Assembly: GCA_951406725.2 (NCBI GenBank)
Contig: OX597819.1
Span: 133,114,001-133,178,000, forward strand
Direction: 5' to 3'
Source of the DNA: Octopus vulgaris
Lineage: Eukaryota
Length of the DNA: 64,000 nt
In this document: piece by piece, positions 1-61,627 of the stretch
Position numbering within the stretch: the stretch's first letter is position 1
Layout: each line of letters starts with the position of its first letter
The notes under the pieces: generated by a model
Database searches by the model: none
Told to the model about the DNA's origin: nothing
The model's input: the letters and a program-made list of their open reading frames with translations, nothing else
Made by a program: the position numbers and the translations under genes

Positions 1-665
1 ACATACTGACACCATAGAACATATTAATTTCTGTAAATGAAGAAGATATAAATCTAAAAATTACATTATCGAGGTTTCGTATTACATTTTTGATAGATAT
101 ATATTATATATTTACAACTGCAGTCTATTTATACATATGTCGAATTTGGTGAATTAATAACAACTTATACTGTGGAGACTTAATTCCTATTGGCCACCGT
201 CTGACTGCGAATAAAAGTTAACAGTCAGATGTAATATCCTAAAAGGATAACTCAATGTCATCAGTTTGACGCCAGTTCCAGTTTTCTATTGTCTTCCTTC
301 GTTAGGACAGCTGCTGTCAGTGTTAATCATTTGGCACAATATTATGAAAGTGGGTTCTTGAGATATTTCGCTTTCTAATCTTGCTTTTCTGAAATCTTGG
401 CAAACCACAGAAATGCATGGATTTACGTTTAAAGATTCGTTGTATAAATCGCATTTACACAACGTTTGTCTATTAATGGACATTTAGAATCTGGTGCTGG
501 TAAATCGTTAAACAAATGTTCGAAAGCCTTTATTATACCAGGATTCTCATTAAGCATTGGAACCTCAGCGGATCAATACAGATTGCAGCCAGTGACAAAT
601 ATCCATCTCAGTGCGAAGTGGGTTCAAATCGAGGCTACTTCATGGCACAATATAAGTGGAGACTA

Positions 666-1066
666 AGGCGGCGAGCTGGTAGAATCGTTAGCACGCCGGG
701 CGAAATGCTTTGTGGTATTTCGTCTGCCGTTATGTTCTGAGTTCAAATTCCGCCGAGGTCGACTTTGCCTTTCATCCTTTCGGAGGTCGATAAATTAAGT
801 ACCAGTTACGCACTGGGGTCGATATAATCGACTTAATCCGTTTGACTCTCCTTGTTTGTTTTCTCTGTGATTAGCCCCTTGTGGGTAGTAAAGAAATAGG
901 TATTTCGTCTGTCTTTACGTTCTGAGTTCACATTTCGTCGAAGTCGAATTTGCCTTTGATCCTTTCGGAGGTCGATAAATTTAGTACCAGTTGCGTACTG
1001 GGGTCGATCTAATCAACTGCCCCCTGCCCCAAGTTTTCGTGCCTTGTGCTTTGATTAGAAAAGAAT
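666..1066 (+). mobile_element. tRNA-derived SINE, dimeric/nested form
   Basis: A-box-like head AGGCGGCGAGCTGGTAGAATCGTTAG, B-box-like GAGTTCAAATTCC, body GCCTTTCATCCTTTCGGAGGTCGATAAATTAAGTACCAG present twice. GGTATTTCGTCTG is repeated at 714-726 and 899-911. Homologous copies occur elsewhere in the window. Confidence 0.85.
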
Positions 1067-1260
1067 AAAAGTGGAGACAACCAAAAGCCAACTGGTTCAC
1101 ATGGTATTTAATCCCAAGCGTGGGTCCTAACAGGTGCTGCTCGTCTGGGTTAGAGTAGACCAACGAGTAATAGGGGCTAAAGGGGTAGTTTCACAGTCCT
1201 CAACACTCTGGAATCCTAGTACCAGGGCGCACAGCTGGAAGTAGTTTAAAGTCATACCTT

Positions 1261-2493: not shown

Positions 2494-2561
<68 letters not shown>

Positions 2562-2570
2562 AATAATGAT
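2419..2570. repeat. compound microsatellite (GTT)n(CTT)n(AAT)n
   Basis: Read directly; the (AAT)n part abuts the R4/Dong element. Confidence 0.95.
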
Positions 2571-3553
2571 AAGGTGAAAATAATGGCAACGAAAAAAGAG
2601 CACGAGCAATTGGCTGATAGGTGGGAGGAGAAACCTCTGCACGGCAAATATGTGGCCCGCAGCAAACAAGCTGATGTTGACCAGAAGCAAACCCATCAGT
2701 GGCTACGGAGCTCAGGGCTAAAAGCAGCGAGCGAAGGTTTCATCCTGGCTGCTCAAGATCAAAGCTTATTAACCCGGAACTACCAGGCCAATGTGATGAA
2801 AAATGGAGCAGACCCAAAATGCCGATTCTGCAACGACATGATTGAAACAGTGGACCACCAAATCTCTGGATGTAAAGTCTTAGCCCCAGTGGAGTATAAA
2901 TTAAGACATGACAGAGTTGGCCAATATCTACACTGGCTAATAAGTCGGCATTACAATATCAAATCTGCCGACAAGTGGTATAATCACCACCCTGCAGCTG
3001 TAACTGAAGGAGAAAATGTAACGATTCTGTGGGACTTTCCAGTACATACAGACCGAACCATCAAAGCCAATCAACCAGATATTGTTGTGAAAGATTAAAA
3101 CAATAAAGTTTGCTTATTGATCGGCATGAGCATCCCCTGTGATCATAATATCTCGGCGAAAGAGTTTGACAAGCTCAGAAAATATAAAGACCTGCTCATT
3201 GAAATTGAGAAAATGTGGCATCTCAAGGCGGTTACAATACCAGTGATCGTAGGAGCACTAGGAATGATCAAGAAGGGAATCGAAAATTATATGAGAATGA
3301 TCCCTGGCTTACCATCCCTGCAAGAAGTGCAAAAGATTGTCTTAACTGGTACATCACACGTATTGAGAAGAGCATTGTCGATGTGAGAACTATTACCACC
3401 CATGTATTTTAATTTAACTTTTAAAAAAAAAATTGAACGAACTATTGAGTTTAGTTTAATGGCCTACCAATGTATACTATGAGTTTCTCTGCTCTAGTAG
3501 TCTGGAAGACACTCGGCAAGAAATGGAAGCAAATTTGAAAGAAGAAAAAAAAG

Positions 3554-3554
<1 letters not shown>
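2571..3554 (+). mobile_element. 5'-truncated R4/Dong-clade non-LTR retrotransposon (C-terminal CCHC + restriction-like endonuclease), copy 1
   Basis: ORFs 2574-3098 and 3117-3386 contain EGFILAAQDQSL, CRFC...H..SGC (CCHC), RHD, QPDIVV and K..KY RLE motifs. An in-frame stop splits them. Flanked by (AAT)n on both sides. Confidence 0.9.
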
Positions 3555-3621
<67 letters not shown>

Positions 3622-3629
3622 AATGATAA

Positions 3630-6600
3630 AAACAATGTGACAACAGAAATGAACGGACCGGTACCCTACGAAAATGACGACCGTCAAAATAAAGGCCGGA
3701 CGTTGTCCCTCATGTCCCGCAAATGAAATCCAAAAGACATAAATGGACACGTGAGGAATACATTTCTATCCTACATACTTATTTTACAGCAGTGCTCTAC
3801 CCAAAGAATGAAAACACAAAAACACATACATATAAAATATGGAAGGAAAACAACATAAATATAGACTTGGATACAGCAATGAACCCTAACAAACTAGCAA
3901 ATATACGGAGATATATTCTCAACGCAAAAAAAATATCAGAAATAGAAATAGAACATCTAAAAGAAAAAATACATCAGGAAAATGTAGATAGAAGCCAGAC
4001 AACAATGCCCAATAATATAAACACTGAAACAGTAAAACACGAAGACAAATGTTACACGAGAAACAAACATACAAATAAGAAAGAAAACGACACAAATCTA
4101 AAACCTGGAAACAATGAAGGGGAGCCTAATGAATATGATAATATAAAAAGTAGAATAATCAAAGAACTGAAAACCACAGAGCTCAAAATGGACCACCGAC
4201 CATACCTCCCAAAAATCAAAATAGACGAAACAACAACACCAATTATAAACAGCATTAACCTAGCCGTCACGGAACTAATAGCCACTGAAACAAAAAGCGA
4301 TATCACTGAGCTAAATGACTTAGTATACGCAGCAGCCACTGCAGCCACAAAAGAAGCTGGATACTCACTCAAACCCGTCCAAACAGAAGTACCACCACCC
4401 AAACAAACCCTGTGGATAAATAACATCCAAAACAAAATACAAAAAGTAAAAAAAATCTGTCGATTCTCAATGAAATCAGTAGACAATCAACGCTACTGAG
4501 CAACAAAAAGAAAACAAAAATACTCCGCAAACACAACATCACACAAAAATATTTACCTGAGATAAAAGAAAAGCTAAAGCAAGATATCCTTGCCAAAGCA
4601 CAAAGGATCCGCCGGTACGAGAAACGCCAGCGCTTCTTTGAACAAAACAAAAAGTTCTACCAAGAACTTGGCAAAAATAAAATAGAAATCACTGCGGCAC
4701 CAACGGTAGAAGTGGAAGAATTCTGGAGAGAAATATGGTCGGCGAACGAACAACCAAAAAAGAAGAATTTTAAAATAACAAACTCAGCGTCTGAGCAACT
4801 TTGGACCCCCATAACAACTGAAGAGGTCACCCAGGCACTGCAAAGACTATGCAACTGGAAGGCACCTGGGCATGACAAGATCCCCAACTTCTGGTTGAAA
4901 TATCTAACAGGAATGCACAAAAAAACTGTAACAACATACTAGCAGAGCCAGAGACAATGCCTGAATGGCTCACGAAGGGGAAAACCATCTTAATTCCCAA
5001 ATCAAATGAAACAGCAAAACCAGAAAACTACAGACCAATAACCTGTCTTCCTACAATGTACAAGACTTTTACTGCAGTGATATCGCAACGGGTGAACAAG
5101 CACCTGGACGAAAACAACCTGTTTCCAGAAGAGCAGAAAGGATGCCGCAAAGGCTCATACGGCTGTAAAGATCAACTAATGATCAATACAGCCATAACTG
5201 AAGACAGCCACAGAAAGAAGAAAGGCCTCAGTATGGCCTGGATCGACTACGAAAATGCGTTTGATAGAATCCCCCACATATGGATCCTCGAAACACTAGC
5301 CATTAACAAAGTAGCACCAACAATTATAAAATTCATTGGGCACTCTATGAATAAATGGCAAACAGTGCTACAGCTCCAAACAAAAGAGGGACTCATGAAA
5401 ACCAAAGCCATCCCCATTAGAAGAGGAATATTCCAGGGAGACACGCTCTCTCCACTCCTTTTCAGCTTGGCACTGTCACCTCTATCTGATATGCTAAATA
5501 GAACTGGATGCGGATATAAATGTTACGGCAAAACGATCAGCCACCTTTTATATATGGATAACCTAAAACTATACGCTGCAAATGACAAACAGCTGGAAAC
5601 ACTATTAAAGACAGTTCATGGATTTACCAAAGAAATAGATATGAAATTTAGATTAGAAAAATGCGCCAAAGTAACCATGAAAAGAGGAAAACTAGTTAAG
5701 AGTAACAACATCACACTAGATAAAACCAATGAAATAAAAGAATTGGACCAAAGCCAAACTTACAAATACTTAGGAATCCATGAACTAGATAAGACACAAC
5801 ACACACAAATGAAAGAGAAAATAAAAAAAGAATATTATAGACGAGTTAGATCAATACTAAAAACAGAGCTCAATGCTAAAAACAAGATAATAGTTATTAA
5901 CACTTTAGCTGTCCCAGTTATAAGTTACAGCTACAATATCCTTAACTGGACACTAAATGAACTGACCAAAATAGATAGGAAAACAAGAAAAATAATGACA
6001 GGGTCTAGGATGCATCACCCAAAATCTGACATAGAAAGACTATATATACAACGTATAGAAGGTGGTAGAGGCCTTATACAGCTGGTAAACTACTATAAAA
6101 TAACCACCATAGGACTGCAAAAATATCTACTTCAGAAGGAAGGAAAACTGATCCAGATAGCAGCAAAACACGAGCAAAACAAAAAACTGTTGTCAGTATT
6201 TAAGGAAGCTGACAAATACAAACAAGAAATCATACCACTTAACAAATATAAAGAAGAAGAAGAAGAAGAAGAAGAAAAAGAAGAAGAAGAAGAAGAAGAA
6301 GAAGAAGAAGAAGAAGAAGAAGAAGAAGAAGAAAAAACAAAAGCTATAAAACAAATGAAATCCAAACTAAAACTAGAACAGCAAAGAACCATGATAAAAC
6401 GATGGCAAGAAAAACCCCTTCACGGTAAATACTGGACTAAACTAAATGCAAAAGAAATAGACAAAGAAAAATCCCAGCAATGGTTGAGAAGCTCAGGACT
6501 CAAAGCAGAGTCAGAGGGATTTTTAATTGCAGCACAAGACCAAAGCCTCCCCACCAGAAATTGCCAAAAACATGTAATGAAAAGAAATATTACAAGTAAC

Positions 6601-7230
6601 TGCAGAGTATGTGGAGATGGACAAGAAACAATAAATCATATTATCTCTAGCTGCCCAGTCCTGGCTAAGAAGGAATATATTCACAGACGTGACAGAGTTG
6701 GAACCTACATACACTGGAGGCTATGCCAACATTATGGAATAACAACAGAAAAAAGATGTTAGGCACACACCAGAAAAGGTCACAGAAAACGAAAAAGCAA
6801 CCATACTTTGGGATATGCCGATACACACAGATAGAGAAATTAAGGCCAACAGACCAGATATAGTTGTCAGAGATCATGAAGAAAAAAAATGCTTTCTAAT
6901 TGATGTATCAATACCGGAAGATGACAACGTGTCTCTAAAAGAAATGGAGAAACTCTCAAAATACAAAGACCTGGAAATGGAGGTAACCAGAATGTGGAAT
7001 CTAAAAACAGAAACAATTCCTATCATAGTAGGTGCATTACGCATGATAAAAAAATATTCAGACAAATACATAACAAAAACACCAGGACTACATGGCATTG
7101 CACACATCCTACGCAGAACACTTTCCATACAATAACCATCAGAGCATCACAACAAATCACAGCACATACCCAAGGCACACAGAGCTGCGCTCGGTAGTGA
7201 AGTGAAAGCACGCTATAAAAAATAAAACTC
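3630..7230 (+). mobile_element. near full-length, disrupted R4/Dong-clade non-LTR retrotransposon, copy 2
   Basis: Colinear fragments 3723-4499, 4712-4942 (NWKAPGHD), 4957-6762 (RT: YRPITCL, QGDTLSP, YMDNLKLY; CCHC) and 6815-7135 (RPDIVV...IDVSIP...KLSKY). Preceded by (AAT)n. Confidence 0.92.
4957..6762 (+). pseudogene. reverse transcriptase ORF fragment of the R4/Dong element
   Basis: RT motifs present, but catalytic YMDD reads YMDN. Stops at 4942 and 6762. In-frame (GAA)n poly-Glu expansion at about 6251-6333. Confidence 0.85.
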
Positions 7231-15539: not shown

Positions 15540-17022
15540 CATGACAGAATGTCTGGCCGGGTCATCGCCAAGAAAGCTCTCCCCGTTTCATTTCCAATTA
15601 TGACTGGTTCGCAGCAAAGATACGTCTCCCTCTCCTTCAATGAAGTGTTCAACGAGATCCCCGGTCAAGCTCCTGGTGTAGACATCCGCTACAAAATGGA
15701 CGGAAGACTTTTCAACACAACCCATCTCAGAGCCCGTCAACCTACCAATTTGGCCAAAGAACATCAGCTGCAGGACGCTGATGACAATGCCACTCTGGCG
15801 CACTCAGTTTCCGGTTTTTACGAGTTTGTGAACTAATTCGAAAATTTGTATACTTGCTTTAATTTGATCACAAAAACATAATGAAGACGACGATCCTTGC
15901 ACAGGGATCCACCGGACAATCTCCCCCTAACACCAGTGGCATAACGGTACAGGAGACTGTCCTGGAAACCGTGGAATCTTTCCTATACCTCGGGAGCTAC
16001 ATGTCCAGCGATTGCACCATTCGGAACGATATCGAGAATAGGATCAGTGCAGCCCATACTGCTCAAAATACCCTCAAAATGAAAGTCTCTTACTAAACCA
16101 CGACCTCACGCTCCAAACAAAAGTCATGCTATTCCGAGCCGTCGTCCTTTTCGCTCTCCTCTACGGCTGTGAGATGTCGATATTGTATCTGCGAGACTTG
16201 AAGAAAATGAAACGTTTCCAACAGTACAGACTTCATGCAATTAAGAGGATTCGATGGAAAGTCTATACATCAATAAAGAGGTTCTGTTCGATGCTGGACT
16301 GCCCAACATTGAGGCCACTGTGGTTCGACATCGTCCCCTGCTTGTCCGGACACACCATACGTATGCCTCAAACGTGCCGTCCCGTCAACTCGTCTTTGCC
16401 ACGTTGGATTTAGGCACCAGATCATGGAGATCCCCAAAATTCTATCCCGAGACCAGTTCAAGTTCACTTGCGTCCGCTGCTCCAAATGTCTGGGAGATAA
16501 CCGCCAAGGAGCGCCCTACGGGGCGGCATGTCTAGGGAAAAGACCTGGTGGAAAATAACTCTTTTCTATTCTAGGCACAAGGCCCGACATTTCAGGGAGG
16601 TGGGGGCCAATCGATTAGATTGACCCCAGTACGCAACTGGTACTTAATTTTTAGACACCGAAAGGATGAAAGGTAAAGCCGACCTCAGCGGAATTTGAAC
16701 TCAGAACGTAAAGACAGACAAAGTATCGCTAAGAATTTCGCCCAGCGTGCTAACGATTCTGTCAGCTTACCGCCTTAACCTGGTGGAAAATAATAACAGA
16801 CATGAAGAGGCACAGATGAGACGTCGAAGACAAACTAAGAGTAACTCGTACTTCCTCGTCTCCAACCAATTCTCCCCCGCGATAGATGCTCCTGGATCTT
16901 CTACACCACCTTTGGTCTGTAGAGCCACCTCAGGCATCAGTGCCTTTCGCATCCATCAAGATGAATAGGCTCAATCAACAGCTACAGGTATATTACACGG
17001 AAACGAGTTAACGTCGACGTCA
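15540..17022 (+). mobile_element. degenerate RTE (BovB-like) LINE, 3' half
   Basis: Fragments GVDIRYKMDGRLFN, LQDADDNATLAHS, ETVESFLYLGS...IENRISAA and RAVVLFALLYGCE; many frameshifts; interrupted by a SINE. Confidence 0.82.
16559..16777 (-). mobile_element. monomeric tRNA-derived SINE inserted in the RTE, 16-bp TSD
   Basis: Reverse-complement homologue of the SINE at 666. TSD ACCTGGTGGAAAATAA at 16543-16558 and 16778-16793. Confidence 0.9.
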
Positions 17023-19568: not shown

Positions 19569-19776
19569 TTGAAAGTTTGGCACAAGACCAGAAAATTTGT
19601 GCGGAGGGTGTAGGTCGATTTTATCGCCTCCAGTTCTCAGCTGGTACTTATCAATCCTGAAAGGATGAAAGGAATAATCGACCTCGGGGGAATTTGAACT
19701 CAGATCGTAAAGACGGACGAAATGATGTTAAGCATTTTGCCCGTCGTATTAACGACTCTGCCAATCCACCGCGTTA
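19569..19776 (-). mobile_element. tRNA-derived SINE with 18-bp TSD
   Basis: Same family as 666 and 16559. TSD GAATGACCAAATATTGAC at 19551-19568 and 19777-19794. Confidence 0.9.
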
Positions 19777-19984
19777 GAATGACCAAATATTGACAAAAAT
19801 TAATCTAATTCCTATAAAGCAGAATGAGTTCTTCTGCGACAAATGATCGGCCTCTTGTGAAGGAGATATGACCGGGAGGTGTTGTGTTACGGACCAACCA
19901 CTGTCATATACTTGGATTGAGTGTAAGGCAAGAAAGGCTCGCCAAATGTAACAAATGATGAATTTATGAATTGTATTAAAGACG

Positions 19985-29679: not shown

Positions 29680-29744
29680 ATAAGTTGAGATGATGCCTTC
29701 TAGTATCTCAAAATTTAATATACAATTATTCATAATTGTAGTAT

Positions 29745-30419: not shown

Positions 30420-30467
30420 TGACTTAAAATTGTATGATAGAACTCTTTGACTGCTATTTCTAAATTC

Positions 30468-30524
<57 letters not shown>

Positions 30525-30544
30525 GCATACATACATATAAATAC

Positions 30545-31828
<1,284 letters not shown>

Positions 31829-40427: not shown

Positions 40428-40626
40428 GTTAGCTGGTAGAATGGTTAGCACGCTGGGGAAAATGATTAACGGCATCTACGTTCTGAGTTCAAATCGCCCC
40501 GAGGTCGACTTTGTCTTTCGTCCTTTGGTTGCCGATAAAATAAATACCTGTTGAGCGCTGGGGTTGATGTAATCAACTTACCCATCTCCCGCAGAAATTG
40601 CTGGCCTTGTGCCAAAATTTGAAACC
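40428..40626 (+). mobile_element. tRNA-derived SINE (same family as 666)
   Basis: AGCTGGTAGAATGGTTAGCACGC head, GTTCTGAGTTCAAATC, and GGCCTTGTGCCAAAATTTGAAACC tail. Confidence 0.8.
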
Positions 40627-40840
40627 AATATATGTACAGGTATACACACTTTTACAGGTGGCGGTCAACTATTTTGACTCCAGTTTTAGACTGGAATTCA
40701 TTTGGGAAGAATGAAAAAGTAAATGTTGCAAGGATTCGAACTCAGAATCTCTAAGTTGACGTAATTAAAGCGCCTAAAAGACTTTTCCGCTGACAATCAT
40801 TTTATTGCCATTAAGATATGAATGACAAGCTTGATGAAAA

Positions 40841-41007
40841 TTCCTTTCTGCTCTAGGCACAAAGCTCGAAATTTGTGGGAAGGGGGCCAGTCGATTAGAT
40901 TGACCCCTGTACACAAATGGTACTTAATTTATCAACCCCGAATTGATTAAAGGCATTGTCGACCTCGGCAGAATTTGAACTCAGAACGTAAAGACAGACG
41001 AAATACC
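40841..41007 (-). mobile_element. SINE 3' portion beginning exactly at GGTATTTCGTCTG
   Basis: Reverse complement of 899-1066; the head is replaced by the Tx1-type LINE. Confidence 0.8.
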
Positions 41008-42725
41008 AATTTATTTACTGTCCACCGAGGGCCAAACATAGAAATGGACAGAACAACTGATGGGATCAGTAAAGCGATGATTTTACATATAATGTGACTT
41101 TAAAAATTTAAATACAACATAAAAAGATCGAAAGAAATTAACAATACAAAGACAATACAAAGGAAGCGCTGATCAGGCCACGCTCCGACCCCATAAGCCC
41201 CGATCTATCGCTGGTATCTTTTTTTGCTGTTCTTTTTTTCCGTCTGCTTCACATGGTTCCTTGCACGCACAGCACTCGTGCAACATGCTTCCATTTTTTT
41301 TTAACACACTCCCCGACATGCATCTCTTCTCCAGCCAAACCTTCCTTTTCAAGTGAAAAGTGAAGAACGAGCTTAACTCGTGGCCGGAGATAAAGTTACC
41401 CGTCTTAATCCCTTTTATCTAGTCTTCCATTCTGCCACTTTTGCTATTGCAACAACAGTGAGAAAACAATTCTTGCCTTCATTTGTTAAAAATTCCGGTG
41501 GGTCAATTTTTTATAATGTACCCAGTCGAAAGTTGTACTCTTTCTTCGCCGGACAACAGGTGTTCAGCATAAACCCACATTTCAGATATCTCCGGGCACT
41601 GGAAAATAGTGTGAGGGACGGTTTCCCTATCCACCCCACTGCATCTTGGACAGGAGGGTAAGACTTTCCATGTCTTGCGAGTTTATCCCAAACGAACAAA
41701 GCGCCTCTGTAACATTGCCAGGTCAAGAACTTTTGGAAATTGTCCAACGTTCTCAACCTGAATGTACGGTGGAACAAGCTATCGAGTTGAATATACCCGA
41801 GACCTAGAGTCGCACCCAGGCCATCGTCACATTCAGACTCTACCAACCCACTATATAAAAAACGTGTAAAACCCCCACCACTGGCGTTGCTCGAGCGTCG
41901 GAAGAGCAGGAGGGCCTTGCGACACTCCATATGCCACTTACTCGACCTCGGTCTACTAGAACACCAGGCTTCCTGTTTGCAAAATCTTTTGATCTCGGGG
42001 AACATTTGTCTGGCTAACGGAGACCACACCCGTTCACCATCCAGGAGAATCCAGATATGCCCCAACCTCAACGCATGCCTGCGCATCATTAACCAAGGCA
42101 TCCCTAAATCTCCCTTTCACGGCTTCTGACAACAGATAGAGCGTCTCACAAGTGGTGACTTGCCCTTCCACAAAAAGCGAAAGAGCTGCCTCTCCAACCT
42201 GATCACCCATCAAGCACATAGGGAATTCTTGGTATTCTAACCTTAGACGTTCTCATCCCTATGTAAATTGGGATTAATATTGTCTTCCGACTCTAATAAT
42301 TTTACTGAGTGTTGTTGTGCCATTTCTGCGTTCTTGAACCTCACCACGATGGTTCCAAACTTCTTCCCTCTGGCTAGGTATGTAATGTCCTGCCAGATGG
42401 GTTTTAAACACTTTTCAATTTTTTGCTCACATATCTTATCAATTTCGCGAGCTTTTAAGCAGAATGTCTTAAAAATAATAATTTCCACTTTTACCACTTC
42501 ATCTCTTTCTCTTATCATTTCCTAGTATTTTAGTAATTCTTTTTTGCCAGTTGACACCTGTCGTATTCCACTACCATCTACCGATGCAAAACTTTTTCTT
42601 TCTTCATTTTGAATGGTCTTTGCTTCTATATTTCTTTTGGTATCCGTAACTTTTGGTAATGCAGGGAATTCGCTTTTCGAAACATCAGAAACTTTATCAA
42701 AAATCAAACTTTCTATCTTCCTCGC
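41008..42725 (-). mobile_element. internally deleted L1/Tx1-type LINE (probable ORF1 N-terminus joined to ORF2 C-terminus)
   Basis: Minus-strand frames give FRFLWKGKSPLVRRSICCQKP.KGDLGMPWL.MRRHALRL and DNFQKFLTWQCYRGAL.V.DKL.RHG (L1/Tx1 post-RT, zf-RVT-like region). ORFs 42243-42707 look ORF1-like. APE and RT core are absent. Confidence 0.72.
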
Positions 42726-45700
42726 TTCCCGCTCAGTCGATGAATCATAAAATATACATACTTATGATGAGTCATTTCAGTACTGAACATGATTCTCGTT
42801 TAAATGCGATTCGGATGTCTTCCAATTGGAATTCTGTTGTGTCCAGATATGCGTGTGTCGTCAGAACTGTAATGGAGACTATTTGTCACGTGATTGACGG
42901 ATGTAGGTTCTTTAACGTGCGATCATCTTTTATTAGTTTACTTTGTTTCATAGAACCTTGCGTGTCTTACCAAGACAACCTTCAAAAGCCAAAGATTTAA
43001 AGGGACCATCGATATATGTTTATTAAGGTTGATTCTCCTTGCATTCTCCTTTCCAGTTTTGGGTGTCTAATGGGATTCTAAACCTTATGCTTCGGTTTAT
43101 TGACTAAATATTTTCTCCGTGGTGCCCTATCAATCACATTCCATTGCTCTTCTCCAATATTACCTTTTATACCATTCAAGGTAGTCTTTATATGTCTGTT
43201 CTTTTGCAGGACATGATTACTCATCCAGGAGGGACTCTAACATTGTTTCGTTTTGCGTATGAGCTATATAAATTACCCACCTCAGTTTGCTATTTCAGTA
43301 AAGAACTTCTAGTCTTACATTATTCGCTAATTCCAAGACAACCAGCATCACTTATAGTGTTTCTCTCTCTAACAGATACGCTGCATTCGTTAAAGACAGC
43401 TTTGGTAACAACACACCAACTGAGCAATATGCTCTTAATAATGTCCATGGTTCACAGCTACTCAAGAAAATATTTTAAAAGTAGATATTTTAACGTCATT
43501 ATTGCATATATGATTGCAAATCGAATAAAGATTGACATTTGCTATAACTTTACTATGATTTCTAATTTCCGCTTGATAAAGTCATAGTTCAAATCTCAGT
43601 GTAACATGTTACCCATATATTTAAAGGAAGACACCGTCATTCTAAAACCTGCACGAGTCTTTCCACATCAGCGCCAAAAACGAATAACGGGTTTATATAG
43701 ACTCGTCGGGAGGTTAATAACAGTTATGTTTTTATCTTTAAGAATTTTATGCTTTTTCATTGTAAGAACTATATAGCCGTTATTAGCGTACGAGGGCCCC
43801 TTAACGTAAAGTGTGTGACTTAGAATTATGGCGGCCGAGTTTGAATAACATACTAGTAATGCAGTAGCTTATATGTTGCTTTCAGAACAATGTTGGTGAT
43901 TGGAAACAATTATTGTGAAAACTATGTCAAACTGTGGGAGCAGTTATACCACTCTGTTGTACACCACCACTAGTTGGAAACCTATCTAAGCATTCCCCAG
44001 TAACTGCACACTCTCTGATATCACGAAGGAAACACTTGATGAAATGTGTATCTTTGCTTTAAAATTATACACAGCATGTCTTGGTTCACTGAATGAAAAT
44101 CGTTAGTGATATCAATGTAACAATGACTTAGAAAGTGAAAAATTCTTTGCCCAGTCCTTACCGAACTTCCAACGTGTCGTTGCTTCGTCCTCGCGGGAAA
44201 ACCTGTTGGCAGCTAACAAACATATCTTCACATAACCCTATTGAGAATTATTTTTATGAAGACTTTCTCTTTAACGCTTACAAAAGAAGAACCTCAAGAA
44301 CTGTCGCAATTGTTTTTACCACCTTTTCTTTTTATACATCACCTGCAGCAACGTATCTCTCCAAACTTGAGGAGCTGTACCATTTATCCTCAGATTATAT
44401 ATTTAAGTATAAGATTAATCAGAAGATCCAGCACCTCTTTTTTTTTAATCTAAGCACTTCAACAGGAAAACCATCGATCTCAATGTCATTTACATCTTAA
44501 CGGAAAGTATATGTTTCTTCATTGAAAATACATAACAAAAGATGTATTTCATTGGAACTCTTTGAGTGCCTTCTAAATTGGACCAAATCTTATTGAGCAT
44601 CAGTAATTGAGCAGATCCCTTTAAAAGTTATTGAGGGATCTTTCTCGAATATTTGCCTGCGTTGGTCCTAATGGTTGCTCAGGAAATTGAATGAATAGCA
44701 TAAACTTGATTTATAAGAGAGTAGATCGCCATAATATCCTACAAGTTATTTACTTTCAAAAGATCACAGCTACGCTCAATCCGTCACATATTTTCCATGT
44801 TTCTCATTGCTTTTTGAATCTTTGACTTAACAGTTTAATATTGAATCAATAGATTTTCGTTTTGATCGATTCGTTTACGTTGCTCTCGTTGCAAAACGAT
44901 AATAATCTTTGTGTATGCTTATTATTATCGTCAATCTAGTCCTTGCATTTGAACTTTGTAACCCTGAATAGTTCTTTTGAACTTTAGTAAAACTATTTTT
45001 TGCCCGCCACACCATATTAACAATATGCACACGCGAATTAAAACCTTCCACGAACTCTTTTCTGACACACTTTTCCTTTTATGTTGCAACTTCAAATCTC
45101 TTTTAAGTTGTGAGAATTTTGTTTTCTAATTTGTTTTACTTTGAACGTTGATTTAGTTTGTAGAAGATTATGATCTGTATTACTATGCTCTACACTCTCT
45201 CTACATATTATATCTTATACACTGCGCCTCTTAAAACCCACACAACTCTCATATCAATGATATCTCTCATTCAACAATGATATAATCAACCAATAGCAAT
45301 TTTCTTGCCATCTGTATACACTGAAGTTCTTTTCTGAATCATTTTATACTAAAAGAGCATATTTTATTTTGTCACTAAATTAAACCAGAGGAATTTGACT
45401 TCTTCCTACCATATCTTAAACAATTCTACAACTCAGTGATTTCACCAACTCCTACGTTGGAATCCCTATAGTTTATTACTTTATTTCCAGCTGGAATTCT
45501 TCAAATATTGTCTCTTAATAACTCATAAGTAAATATTTCGTCTTCTTCACAAACAGACGTTTGAGGCAGACTGAGCGATCGAAAGATAAATACATGCAGA
45601 AAGATGTCAGCCAATAATTTCAGACTGGCAGAACGCCGTAAGAGATTGAACTAGAGTTTATTTAACAGCAAAATTCCTTTCCAGAGTCTTTTCTTAGTTT

Positions 45701-53515: not shown

Positions 53516-54492
53516 TTTTAATCGGATCACTTTCTCTCCTAACAGAAATTACTTTCTCCGTGTCATTTTTGAGGCAGAATGAACAGATGTCTAGACGTGT
53601 AGCAAAACAATGTTTGGCATGTCCTCAGCACGTGAAACTAATAGTAGAACATAAAAACTTCTATTGTGTTTATTAAATAATATTTTGAACTCACCAGATG
53701 GCGTCATTTTTTTTTTTTGTTGATGTTACCATCACGGAACAGTACACTATATATATATATAAATATATATAATTTTGGGGGATTAATTGATATACGGGTA
53801 TTCTATTTCAGATAATACAAAAATAACCAAATGAGTATATCTTACAGTAAACTCGTGGTATCAGTTTGCACATCCCGAAATAATACTTAAAGGATATAAC
53901 CAAAATTTCCAGCTGGGTATATGATGTACTTCATTAATTATGTTATACTTTAGTTAATATTTATATTTATTATGAAGGAACTACACGTGTTCCAGTATTG
54001 GAAGATTAGAATATATATAAATATACACGGCTGTATACCTTTATATATACATATATAAACACAGATATGCAATCGTCAGATTTACAATTATTCCAACACA
54101 TCGGGTTCTATTTCAAATAATTATGTATCTAATTTTACATCTCTTTAAAATAAGCAATACAATTAAGCATTAAAGATTAAAAATTACGAATTAAAAATTA
54201 AGAAAAAATTATACTTTATATATTAAGAATTAAAATTTTAATCGGATCACTTTCTCTTCTAACAGAAATTACTTTCTCCGTGGCATTTCTGAGGCAGAAT
54301 GAACAGATGTCACCCTTTCTCGCTATACTTAATCAAATATTGTCGTTAACTTATCACCTAATCTGAAGCTTGGTACAGGCGTAGTTAATAAACATATGTG
54401 GGCAATGTCTGATGATTGTGCTGGGACACTAGACGTGTAGCAAAACAATGTTTGGCATGTCCTCAGCACATGAAACTAACTTCTATTGTGTT
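53516..54492 (+). repeat. direct repeat pair (53516-53672 / 54236-54492) carrying complementary partial hammerheads
   Basis: Shared TTTTAATCGGATCACTTTCTC...GAACAGATGTC and CTAGACGTGTAGC...GAAACTAA. CTGATGA at 54409 is only in copy 2; the cleavage site TAG-TA-GAACAT is only in copy 1. Confidence 0.75.
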
Positions 54493-54676
54493 GGCGATTT
54501 TTTTCATCCGTCTTCCCTTCTTTGGATCTTTCCTTTTCCTATGTTTATGATGAAGAGCTCCGCTCGAAACGTTAAACCCACCTTTCCTTCTTTCCGGAGC
54601 GTCCAATAATACTATACTAGTTCCACGTCCTCGCGTTGTGTTTTCTCTTTGTGTTTTCATGTTTGGATTAACTTTA
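54490..54676 (+). mobile_element. (TA)n-anchored ~190-bp repeat with hammerhead-like motif (54543-54577)
   Basis: Inverted near-identical copy at 57254-57443. Motif GTTT-ATGATGA-A-GAGC-TCC-GCTC-GAAA-CG-TT-AAAC. Confidence 0.7.
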
Positions 54677-54690
54677 TATATATATTAATA

Positions 54691-54758
<68 letters not shown>

Positions 54759-54762
54759 ATAT

Positions 54763-55079
54763 TTAGTGAGGGAAGAAATGGAGCTGAACGAAGATTCTAC
54801 AAAATTCCTTTTTATTATTTTCTACACATGTTTCAAAGGCTGCAAATTCCCTAATTCGGATTGAATAAGGAGACCATTTTGCAGCTTTCTCTTCAGGAAA
54901 ATCCAGGAATTAAAATCTCCAAACAAATGCGCAGCAAGCTTTTCGAACAAAAGCACGGTTGCGACACCCCATGGTCGTAACCGCAACCGTGTTATTTCTG
55001 TTGTCATTTTTGCTACCCAGGTATCGGTTAAATTTTTAATAATCCGTAACAAGATAATTCATTTATCCATTTCAATTAA

Positions 55080-55130: not shown

Positions 55131-56643
55131 CTTAGATAAACTTAGATATGTTTCGACCAAAGATTGGTAGAGGCCATGTCTAACTTAATAGCATTACCTG
55201 ATAGGATTATTCGAATCCTGTTTAAGTCAAGTTTTGTTCAAGTAGTGAGTTCTTGTTGGGTGAGTTGTATCCAATTATGGGTGGCTTATCTGGTATTCTT
55301 TGAAGGAATCTATCTAGACTCCGTTTAAAGTTGATGGGATCCTCTTCCTCTTTGATCTCCATCGGGACAATGTTAAATAGGGCAGGGCCTGTTGAGGAAA
55401 TGAAATTATGTTGCAGTGTACATGTATGTTGTGATCTTGAATTGGGCAGGGGACGTAAGGCCCGTGGTCCCAGTCTTGGATGAACCTTGAAGCTAATGTT
55501 TAGGTCGTTTGGGCAAAGTTGGCGGTACATTTTCCACATCGTACAAATGATGTACCGCTCACGGCGACGCTGGAGGGAGTAAAGTTTCAAGGCTTTAAGG
55601 CGATCCCAATAATCGAGAGCAGCCATGCCTTCAATTCGTTTAGTGAGTGCCCTCTGGGGTGACTCAATTCTGGAGGTGTTTTGTCTTGTGTGAGGAGACC
55701 ACAGTGGGCAGCAGTATTCAAGGTGTGGCCGTACAAAGGAGGAAAAAAGTGGTATGATGACACCTTGTTCTCTGGACCGGAAAGTTCTTAAGATCCAGGA
55801 ACTCATCCTACGAGCTATATCGACCTTCTTGTTGATGTGTGCACTCCAACTGAGATCGTCATCAACAATTACACCCAGGTCTCTGATATTGTTAGAGGCT
55901 GTGAGCGGTTCCCCTGAAGGAAGAGAGTATGGTTGTTTTAGTGAGGAATTTCTTCCAAAATGCATCAGCTCAAATTTTCCCTCATTCAGTTGCATTTTGT
56001 TTCTGTCTGCCCATTGACTCACAGCATATAGATCAGACTGGAGTTGAGTTCGGTCTGCTTCTTCATTGACAATTTGTTGGAGCTTAGTGTCATCAGCAAA
56101 TATTTTCACTTTGCAGTTAATGTACGACACTGGAAAGGTCGTTTACGTAAATTATGAAGAGTAGCGGACCCAAAACAGTTCCCTGGGGAACACCGCTGGT
56201 GACTTTTGCTGGATTTGAGTGGACTCCATCAACTACAACATGTTGTGTTCTATTCGCCAGGAAATACTTAATCCAGTGTAGAACTTTTCCACGGATTCCA
56301 ACATTTGCCAATTTTGAGAGTAGGATATTATGGTCTACCGTGTCGAACGCTTTACTGAAGTCAAGATATATGACGTCAGAGTTCGAACCTGTTCCCAAGG
56401 CTTTGAGTACATCTTCAATGTGGTGTAAGAGCTGTGTTAGACAGTCCCTGCCACAGCGAAAGCCATGCTGATTTGGATTTAGGAGTTTGTGGGTCTCCAG
56501 GAAGTCAGCCATCCTTGATCTTAACACTCTTTCAAACACTTTAATGATATGGGAGGTGAGTGAGATAGTTGACTGCGAGGGATCTGTTTGAAAACCGGGA
56601 TGACCGACTGGGATAGAAACTGTTTCGGTATATAACCTGCGTC
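55128..56643 (-). mobile_element. 5'-truncated CR1-group LINE (RT to 3' end)
   Basis: [40 protein letters not shown] and FADDTKL motifs (ORFs 56117-56824 and 55222-56130, frameshift near 56125). (TATCTAAGTT)2 tail; bounded by (TA)n. Confidence 0.92.
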
Positions 56644-56646
56644 TAT

Positions 56647-57443
<797 letters not shown>

Positions 57444-60217: not shown

Positions 60218-60945
<728 letters not shown>

Positions 60946-61627
60946 GTATGTCACCCTGAATAAATGTAGTTTAGACTACTTTCAAAAGGAACTGCTTCGG
61001 GTACAATTTGGCTTCTTGGGAGTTCTCTCAACCGATGCAGATTTGCAACACAGCAGCCGCTCAGTATTTCACTTCCAATGACGTGGAAAACTTCAAAATT
61101 GCAACAGATTTCTGTTATTCTGCGAATAAAAATACAAGAAAAGTGGAACTATGTCAATATCACTAAACAGCTACAACTCATACTGCACAACACTCACACA
61201 AAACGTAGAACTATAAAAATAGAGACATAGAGAGCAAAGCTTGAATTTGAATAAATTCCCTGAAACCTGTTCTTAGAAATTGCTCAAAACAAAATGAATT
61301 AATGAAACACGACTTTCATGTCATCAGCAAAAGATGATCTAGATCTATTACTGATTACGATTAACTCCAGTGTCAACTACAGCATGGACCACTGCAAAGG
61401 AATTTCTTAAAATATTACAAGTAGTGAAGCAATCTCAACAATCATTCATCATCGATCTACCGAACCGGAAGTTTCGAGCATTTACAGGATGCTGCAAAAA
61501 AAAAAAAAACCCGCAAAGGAAAGGGAAAAAAAATTACTTTCACTGTTCTTGATAAACATTTCACAGCGAAGTTGTACGCTGGTTGAAACCACAATGGCAA
61601 CTGAATAAAGAAAAAACCCATAAAACA

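Follow-up and report, generated by a model that had tools for sequence, protein, structure and literature searches.

The element at positions 649-1078 of the window, a stretch of 64,000 nucleotides from Octopus vulgaris, is a SINE with a LINE-related tail that is fused into position 48 of a differently tailed SINE. With a probability of about 0.7, the LINE-tailed SINE was joined at this position to a SINE of the other subfamily by target-primed reverse transcription (TPRT) with the proteins of an L1/Tx1-type LINE that stops at the same base (the site-48 LINE). That this self-nesting system of a SINE and a LINE is real is well supported. The evidence comprises the anatomy of the element, the junction that it shares with the LINE, the site preference of LINE and SINE, the age order within arrays, and rare full-length nested inserts with a target duplication, all of which are observed.

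Anatomy of the element

Within the region 667-1063, one head is followed by a body, a 65-bp tail, a second body and a different tail. These parts are enclosed by an outer target-site duplication, recognised from the sequence. The features of the element, and three monomers with which it was compared, are as follows.

649..663, + strand: outer target-site duplication, left copy, 15 bp, one mismatch to the right copy
667..713, + strand: single SINE head, SINE positions 1-47, with an A-box-like motif; 43 of 47 bases identical to the tailed-subfamily consensus
714..833, + strand: body 1, SINE positions 48-166, LINE-tailed subfamily; 117 of 119 bases identical to the subfamily consensus
834..898, + strand: LINE-related 65-bp tail (the "linker"), TAGT variant
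899..1018, + strand: body 2, the target SINE from position 48 onward, other ("A-tail") subfamily
1019..1063, + strand: A-type tail of the target SINE
1064..1078, + strand: outer target-site duplication, right copy, 15 bp
16559..16777, - strand: comparison monomer with an A-type tail, site 48 unoccupied
19569..19777, - strand: comparison monomer, older, with another tail
40428..40634, + strand: comparison monomer, older, with another tail

The head at 667..713 is likely a fusion of the target's head with that of the inserted SINE. Its A-box-like motif was assigned by eye. Body 1 begins at the target site GGTATTTCG and contains a B-box-like motif, and the linker behind it has a GCCC/GGGY hairpin and is without poly(A). 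Body 2 has 13 mismatches to the tailed-subfamily consensus and carries the diagnostic bases of the A-tail subfamily. The A-type tail that follows shows no match to the LINE, its local score of 18-20 being at the level of shuffled sequences. The linker is absent from the monomers at 16559, 19569 and 40428. Since the right half of the element has no head, it is not a dimer of two whole monomers.

The sequence GGTATTTCGTCTG occurs at 714-726 and at 899-911, and the same 13 bp also adjoins the end of the LINE. The original prediction treated this repeat as a duplicated junction. Both copies do stand at these positions, but they form the start of a 120-bp duplication (714-833 versus 899-1018, 106 of 120 bases identical) and are not a private target duplication. 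A true target duplication of 13 bp is thus rejected for this locus.

The linker as a SINE tail

The linker had been likened to the 3' tail of a Tx1 LINE. A recount gives the same 25 of 35 matching positions between the end of the linker and the 3' end of the LINE (41008-41042, - strand), and both tails run into GGTATTTCGTCTG. Aligned locally to a 5.3-kb LINE copy, the window linker matches best at the LINE's last base, with a score of 33. Against 300 shuffles (mean 19.8, maximum 32) this is marginal for a single copy. The consensus tails of the two main subfamilies score 42 and 53 against shuffle maxima of 29 and 31, and the last 35 bases of the CAAT variant of the tail have 31 in common with the site-48 LINE. 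The likeness exceeds chance, and the linker carries a tail motif that is found in L1/Tx1-type LINEs.

A search of the 2.8-Gb genome with the linker gave 40 scored matches at 94-100% identity, and a 28-base motif from its end has 85,454 exact matches genome-wide. The 13 tails found in 200 kb of evenly spaced DNA correspond to about 180,000 copies in the genome, a rough estimate from a sample drawn from two contigs. Among 129 tails picked irrespective of the downstream sequence, the next base belonged to SINE position 48 in 54 cases, to position 15 in 5 and to another SINE position in 4; the remaining 66 were followed by other DNA. The expectation that the linker is always followed by GGTATTTCGTCTG fails, as these 66 tails are not classed as SINE-followed.

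Tailed copies in other DNA are ordinary monomers, whose target duplications start at the tail end, often with GGTA; cores of 11-19 bp are present in only 29 of 91 elements with non-SINE flanks. The linker is therefore the alternative tail of a SINE subfamily, and not part of a dimeric family. The consensus of the tailed SINE is 231 bp long. It has the characteristics of a SINE, being short, non-coding, interspersed and of high copy number, with target duplications of variable length and a 3' end shared with LINEs, to within 3-6 edits in 39 bases for sister copies that have ORF2 upstream. The head contains A- and B-box-like motifs, recognised by eye; ARAGORN reports no tRNA in it, and an Rfam scan gives no match at gathering level to tRNA, snRNA or any other family. 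The family may correspond to OR1/OR2 or to a SINE with a Nin or Deu domain.

The site-48 LINE

The window also contains a copy of the LINE, described by three features.

41008..42240, - strand: 3' 1.2 kb of a decayed LINE, with the end of ORF2, the 3' UTR and the tail, stopping at SINE position 48; its L1/Tx1-type label comes from relatives elsewhere in the genome
42241..42800, - strand: ORF1-like piece resembling the ORF1 start of older LINE copies, from a translation compared by eye; boundaries approximate
40840..41007, - strand: target SINE of this LINE, from position 48 to its A-type tail

The ORF1-like piece is likely to belong to the same LINE copy, with an internal deletion. Pfam finds nothing on the two LINE pieces of the window (41008..42240 and 42241..42800). 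Full-length copies are 5.0-5.8 kb long and have a zinc-knuckle ORF1 and an APE-RT ORF2, with Pfam matches to PF03372 and PF00078 in a 1015-aa frame and to PF00098 in ORF1. The best solved-structure match of ORF2 is human L1 ORF2p (E 4.5e-64), and R2 is found at 1.8e-20. One of 55 homologues is named as a retroelement, "Transposon TX1 uncharacterized 149 kDa protein" (E 4.9e-27). From these comparisons the LINE is classed in the L1/Tx1 group of non-LTR retrotransposons.

The LINE had been described as one that targets the SINE, and two overlapping samples of 30 loci, with six loci common to both, agree. It stops at SINE position 48 in 27 of the 30 best 3' UTR matches. Among loci picked by the tail alone, 24 of 30 are at site 48 when scored strictly, and 27 when three partly deleted targets are included. 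The LINE is rare, with 75 exact tails genome-wide. Copies of a young subfamily, 0.2-1% from their own consensus, have targets of several SINE types. Long open frames are found in L202 (1062-4106, - strand), L210 and L213 (a 1015 aa ORF2 piece, and ORF1 of 513-548 aa), and among 16 young copies examined, none has both frames whole. The older copies L156 and L166 share another 5' head variant, close to that of the window element; each LINE subfamily may carry its own SINE head.

Nesting and arrays at site 48

In a set of 205 SINE tails at site 48, which includes loci chosen for this junction, 101 belong to elements with a single head upstream and 64 to head-less units that follow another tail. 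Another 4 are full-length and carry a duplication, and the remaining 36 are truncated or of other form. Arrays are common, and their repeat unit is a head-less 184 bp that covers SINE positions 48-231. Among parsed elements with heads there are 105 monomers, 57 dimers and 31 longer arrays, so that the predicted trimers exist, together with arrays beyond them. A dimeric SINE family with a fixed unit of two monomers is rejected by these counts and by the three tail types of the last units.

The left and right halves of these elements were expected to differ in subfamily and age, and they do. The halves of the window element differ at 14 of 120 positions. In a sample of 35 arrays that end in a non-tailed SINE, first units are 5.5% diverged and last units 8.0% (p=0.017). 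The first units carry the tailed-type base at position 63 in 33 of 35 cases, and the last units resemble the monomer pool (11/35 versus 15/48 at one diagnostic base). Descent from one master dimer is likewise rejected, as the last units have three tail types and a mean pairwise distance of 16.6%.

Arrays also show a polarity. Where neighbours differ by 6% or more (59 pairs), the lower divergence is found in the head-side unit 44 times and the higher 12 times (p=1e-4), a result that partly reflects subfamily, as divergence was scored against a TAGT-dominated consensus. TAGT makes up 138 of 164 or more internal units and CAAT 20 of about 54 terminal tailed units. This terminal enrichment fits CAAT being the older variant, with a body divergence of 6.9% versus 5.6%. 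Of 20 cases in which the last unit has a rare variant at positions 48-63, only 1 shows it again in the preceding unit, and fused arrays thus retain no ordinary target duplication. The pattern fits repeated insertion at a head-side site. In contigs from four sequencing runs, which end at the repeat, no empty-site allele was seen, an uninformative result.

Not every junction represents an insertion. Neighbouring tailed units are less than 4% apart in 26 of 111 cases, compared with 0.8% of 68,661 between-array pairs, which indicates local duplication. Such neighbours account for 4/39 pairs where an array has two units, and for about half where it has 4-5. Genome-wide junction counts therefore overstate the number of independent insertions. 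The ten-unit array L221 consists of almost identical units with graded shared variants, and L149 and L222 are similar; long arrays thus grow mostly by duplication, or are sensitive to assembly. Homogeneous tandem units are seen in L221 and L149, and not at the window locus or in most two-unit arrays. The window halves, 14/120 apart and of different subfamilies, are not a case of local duplication. Of the claim that the SINE inserts into its own family and so produces nested dimers, the nesting at site 48 stands, but part of the arrays are local duplications.

Probable fusion of the heads

In young LINE copies (0.2-1% from consensus), all 13 heads are single and start with SINE positions 1-63. 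These heads come from 16 oriented copies among 20 loci, after one without a 5' end, one truncated and one duplicate copy were dropped. They are mosaic. Positions 1-39 differ at 28 of 499 bases and are as varied as old SINEs; positions 40-63 differ at 3 of 299 (p=9e-4) and are as uniform as the LINE. Double-headed or duplicated inserts, of which there are 6 cases, are 5-8% diverged. Such inserts therefore persist and are not quickly lost.

Heads thus likely fuse during insertion, a deletion shortly afterwards being less probable. By analogy with R2, the RNA may carry a head and its cDNA may anneal to the head of the target while insertion proceeds. In SINE arrays, heads are mostly of the insert type with a weak trace of the target at the 5' end, and head divergence is weakly linked to that of the last body (rho 0.34, p=0.047, n=35).

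Tail variants and landing sites

The tail variant is tied to the landing site, with an odds ratio of 354. GGTATTT, the start of site 48, follows 22,349 of 51,481 TAGT tails (43%), a count inflated by local duplication, compared with 558 of 11,786 CAAT tails (4.7%). AGAAWCG, which marks a site at position 14-15, follows 1,256 of 11,786 CAAT tails versus 142 of 51,481 TAGT tails. The background in 200 kb of evenly spaced DNA is 48 GGTATTT heptamers and 15 site-48 heads. The idea that the tail by itself leads to self-targeting is not borne out, given the different shares of TAGT and CAAT at site 48. Most of the 30 loci read among the 1,256 CAAT junctions at SINE position 15 continue as SINE there. 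Explaining the end of the CAAT tail as a mere (AGAAAT)n repeat is insufficient, as AGA is also present in several 5' duplication copies.

The SINE had been proposed to have captured the tail of the LINE that targets it. This is disfavoured, and with it the LINE family of the window as tail donor, since the tail is closer to sister LINEs with other targets. Over 39 bases, the oldest variant, CAAT, is separated from the site-48 LINE by 6 edits and from sister LINEs by 3 (median 4); TAGT is 8 edits in 39 from the site-48 LINE and 5 (median 7) from the sisters, medians that exclude the 27 of 46 sister tails with no ORF2 match within 1.5 kb. The same motif ends these 46 further LINE-like tails, 19 of which have ORF2 upstream, and none of the 19 is followed by GGTAT. 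Most simply, the tail derives from the LINE radiation, with the site-48 family an improbable source, and its variants rode different LINE partners of this radiation. With the TAGT tail 8 edits away from the site-48 LINE, the latter is taken as partner from the shared site and not from tail identity.

Sister LINE-like elements are inserted at AAGAAAC/CAGAAAC, SINE position 14-15, at four loci (L311, L314, L325 and L326). This is the site that the CAAT variant prefers. The L311 element is inserted into a young copy of the site-48 LINE, in its head. Another L1/Tx1-type family, with about 50% protein identity and a related tail, runs into (TATC)n or (TGTC)n (L140 near 1150, + strand; L108, L091 and L124). 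A third site is GGTACTT near SINE position 137, where tailed SINEs, mostly with TAAT, lie in antisense and have duplications of 14-19 bp (L012, L051, L052, L134 and L006).

When four tails were folded with three sites, complementarity to the site appeared only for TAAT (-6.8 kcal/mol). The other tails gave -1.2 to -3.9 kcal/mol, with variant and site not matched. Complementarity of a tail to its landing site thus has support only for TAAT. An exact TAGT tail occurs in none of 28 sister tails and in 2 of 75 tails of the site-48 LINE (contig C29, 13626807 and 14786561), where the bases of the SINE are perhaps due to a template switch between LINE and SINE RNA.

A proposed mechanism for nested insertion

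In the proposed mechanism, the LINE endonuclease would nick the target before GGTATTT, with a second nick about 13-17 bp downstream. The SINE RNA would be recognised through its hairpin tail. With the same head present in RNA and target, the cDNA could anneal by its end to the target's head, leaving one fused head and a 184-bp unit (positions 48-231). The fused head would restore the promoter spacing and a fresh site 48, so that later inserts would stack on the head side. Once two units are present, slippage or unequal crossing-over may add near-identical ones. The tail variants would be carried by different members of the LINE radiation with this tail motif, and would for that reason land at different sites.

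Alternatively, whole dimers or arrays could be transcribed and retrotransposed as one RNA from a source locus or loci, nesting having occurred once or a few times. Such a model would suit the outer target duplication on the window element and many arrays, as well as arrays of near-identical units such as L027, which lie in non-SINE DNA with a duplication starting GGTA. Fused-array heads are also mostly of the tailed subfamily (23/35 at position 19, versus 74/105 and 15/48). It is nevertheless unlikely, as it conflicts with last units that are diverse (three tail types, 16.6%) and more diverged than the first (8.0% versus 5.5%), with young LINE copies that have the same fused architecture in different target types, and with the existence of full-length nested inserts with duplications. 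Still less probable is that arrays arise mainly at the DNA level, by unequal recombination, slippage or ectopic conversion between SINE copies. Such a process cannot start arrays at one fixed base shared with a LINE, and it does not account for the younger head-side units in the 59 of 111 pairs that differ by 6% or more. As sole cause it is refuted by mixed-subfamily dimers such as the window element, whose halves show 14/120 differences. The 26/111 neighbours less than 4% apart and the arrays L221 (ten units), L149 and L222 do speak for it, and unequal recombination has been invoked for SINE satellites (PMC10702118, from the part covered). DNA-level duplication is therefore a real second step, and not the origin of arrays. 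The slimmest chance is given to a full-length insertion with target duplication from which one of the two heads is deleted later. In its favour are the existence of the full-length form (4/205 junctions) and the mosaic head that loss of sequence between two heads would likewise leave. Against it, 13/13 young LINE heads are single by about 0.5% divergence, and double-headed forms survive to 5-8%.

A further model concerns the choice of site, and is possible though the balance tips against it. Here one LINE machinery moves all variants, and read-through RNA bases pair with the nicked DNA and set the site, so that each source locus propagates its own. The odds ratio of 354 between variant and site is in its favour. 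In 13 of 14 young LINEs the 3' junction starts with C and not G. Non-tailed targets are included, and 0 of 48 non-tailed monomers have this C; RNA bases therefore likely overwrite the target, but the C could also reflect an endonuclease preference for a C-variant head. At non-SINE sites of TAGT, mismatches between duplication copies favour the tail-side GGTAT by 10 to 4 (16 loci), a small bias. The 5' duplication copies are already GGTA-like, so much of the preference lies in the target, and in folding, only TAAT shows a link between tail and site. Sister families with sites of their own, including position 14-15, explain the split unaided. A tentative extension is a self-renewing landing-pad system, in which the site is picked by the passenger RNA, and two or three tail bases, or read-through bases, switch insertion from scattered sites to the SINE's own head. 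If this is true, fusion would rebuild promoter and target, and older SINE loci would become sources of a new subfamily. The L1/Tx1 group would then offer a naturally occurring example of site choice that RNA can tune, and satellites could be seeded through retrotransposition.

Relation to known systems

The published cases compared here are taken from parts of the papers cited. The closest is that of the Tx1-Mar LINEs and SINEU of crocodilians, which share a transposon, Mariner-N4_AMi, as target. Tandem SINEU copies arise by sequential insertion, and some of the LINEs have SINE-like 5' heads. Kojima found that SINEU-1/2 and SINEU-3 prefer different sites, and read this as a sign of different LINE partners (PMC4494074). 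The octopus system is alike in having a LINE with a transposon as target, SINEs with the same target, sequential tandem insertion and a SINE head on LINEs, and alike also in variant-specific sites read as different LINE partners. It differs in the target, which for Tx1-Mar and SINEU is a third element whose duplication is sandwiched between tandem SINEU-3 copies. In the octopus, the target is the passenger's own head, inserts are fused with loss of the duplication, and there are tens of thousands of junctions. The snRNA-derived head and Mariner target that define Tx1-Mar/SINEU are absent, the target being a SINE head. The octopus system thus works like Tx1-Mar/SINEU without being a member of it.

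Fusion at the 5' end has a parallel in R2. R2 RNA that keeps upstream 28S sequence has been proposed to anneal to the target, which leads to uniform 5' junctions; a minority of insertions are tandem duplications, and junction variants can be propagated through the RNA (PMC3774820). R2 has a restriction-like endonuclease and an rDNA target, whereas the octopus LINE is of the APE type with a dispersed SINE as target, and here a non-autonomous SINE has the same junctions as the LINE. Sequence-specific LINEs of the Tx1 clade include Tx1 of Xenopus, which inserts in Tx1D, and Keno, Kibi and Koshi (PMC4494074). Their targets are DNA transposons, snRNA genes or microsatellites, in contrast to the octopus LINE, which targets a SINE that its group appears to move. 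The octopus LINE is likewise sequence-specific, and the genome also has a (TATC)n-associated relative whose tail is similar.

Satellites derived from part of a SINE are represented by sSat of squamates (PMC10702118) and by PcH-sat of limpets, with a promoter-less 179-bp unit (PMC11121367). Like the octopus arrays they are tandem repeats, but in the parts covered they are attributed to DNA-level duplication, with no site-specific seeding shown. In the octopus, unit ends are fixed by the LINE target site and many neighbours are unrelated copies.

The octopus tRNA-derived SINEs OR1 and OR2 are named in PMC4758252 and PMC4824008; the SINE described here may be of the same type. A reference sequence for the central domain of CORE, Meta or Nin/Deu SINEs was not found in the literature covered, including one supplement of PMC5804259. 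In Octopus vulgaris, 13 recently active L1-Tx1 families and a burst of SINEs and LINEs at distance 0.065 have been described, and the portions of that paper covered make no mention of targeting (PMC13282606). No report of a LINE that targets the head of its passenger SINE was found in the literature covered; Repbase, Dfam and subscription papers lie outside this scope and may hold a prior description. New here are genome-wide counts by tail variant, evidence for head fusion during insertion, an estimate of how much local duplication contributes, and the finding that tail donor and site-48 LINE do not match.

The papers found describe parts of a loop that is complete in this system. The target of the LINE is the SINE that its group appears to move, and the passenger thus supplies landing sites. 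The number of junctions, the three tail variants and the nearly intact young LINE make it possible to test endonuclease against RNA-DNA pairing as the source of site choice, and to study how the 5' junction of a non-LTR insertion forms, in one genome. The arrays offer a route from a dispersed SINE to a tandem repeat. They are also a warning, as in automatic repeat libraries this one family will be broken up into many spurious "dimer" families.

Other elements in the window

A decayed LINE with RT and zf-RVT matches lies at 2560-6762 (+ strand), right behind runs of (TTC)n and (TAA)n at about 2420-2570. It resembles an R4/Dong-type element that targets microsatellites. A second C-terminal LINE piece is present at 2580-3098. 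RT fragments at 55222-56878 and 60289-60975, both on the - strand, are presumably CR1/L2-like. The former lies between inverted repeats at 54490-54765 and 57163-57443 that are 94% alike. Finally, a frame at 30441-30980 (+ strand) has a GIY-YIG-like motif, seen by eye, and is perhaps a Penelope-like remnant; it adjoins a 175-bp direct repeat, with copies at 29683 and 30267 that are 99% identical.
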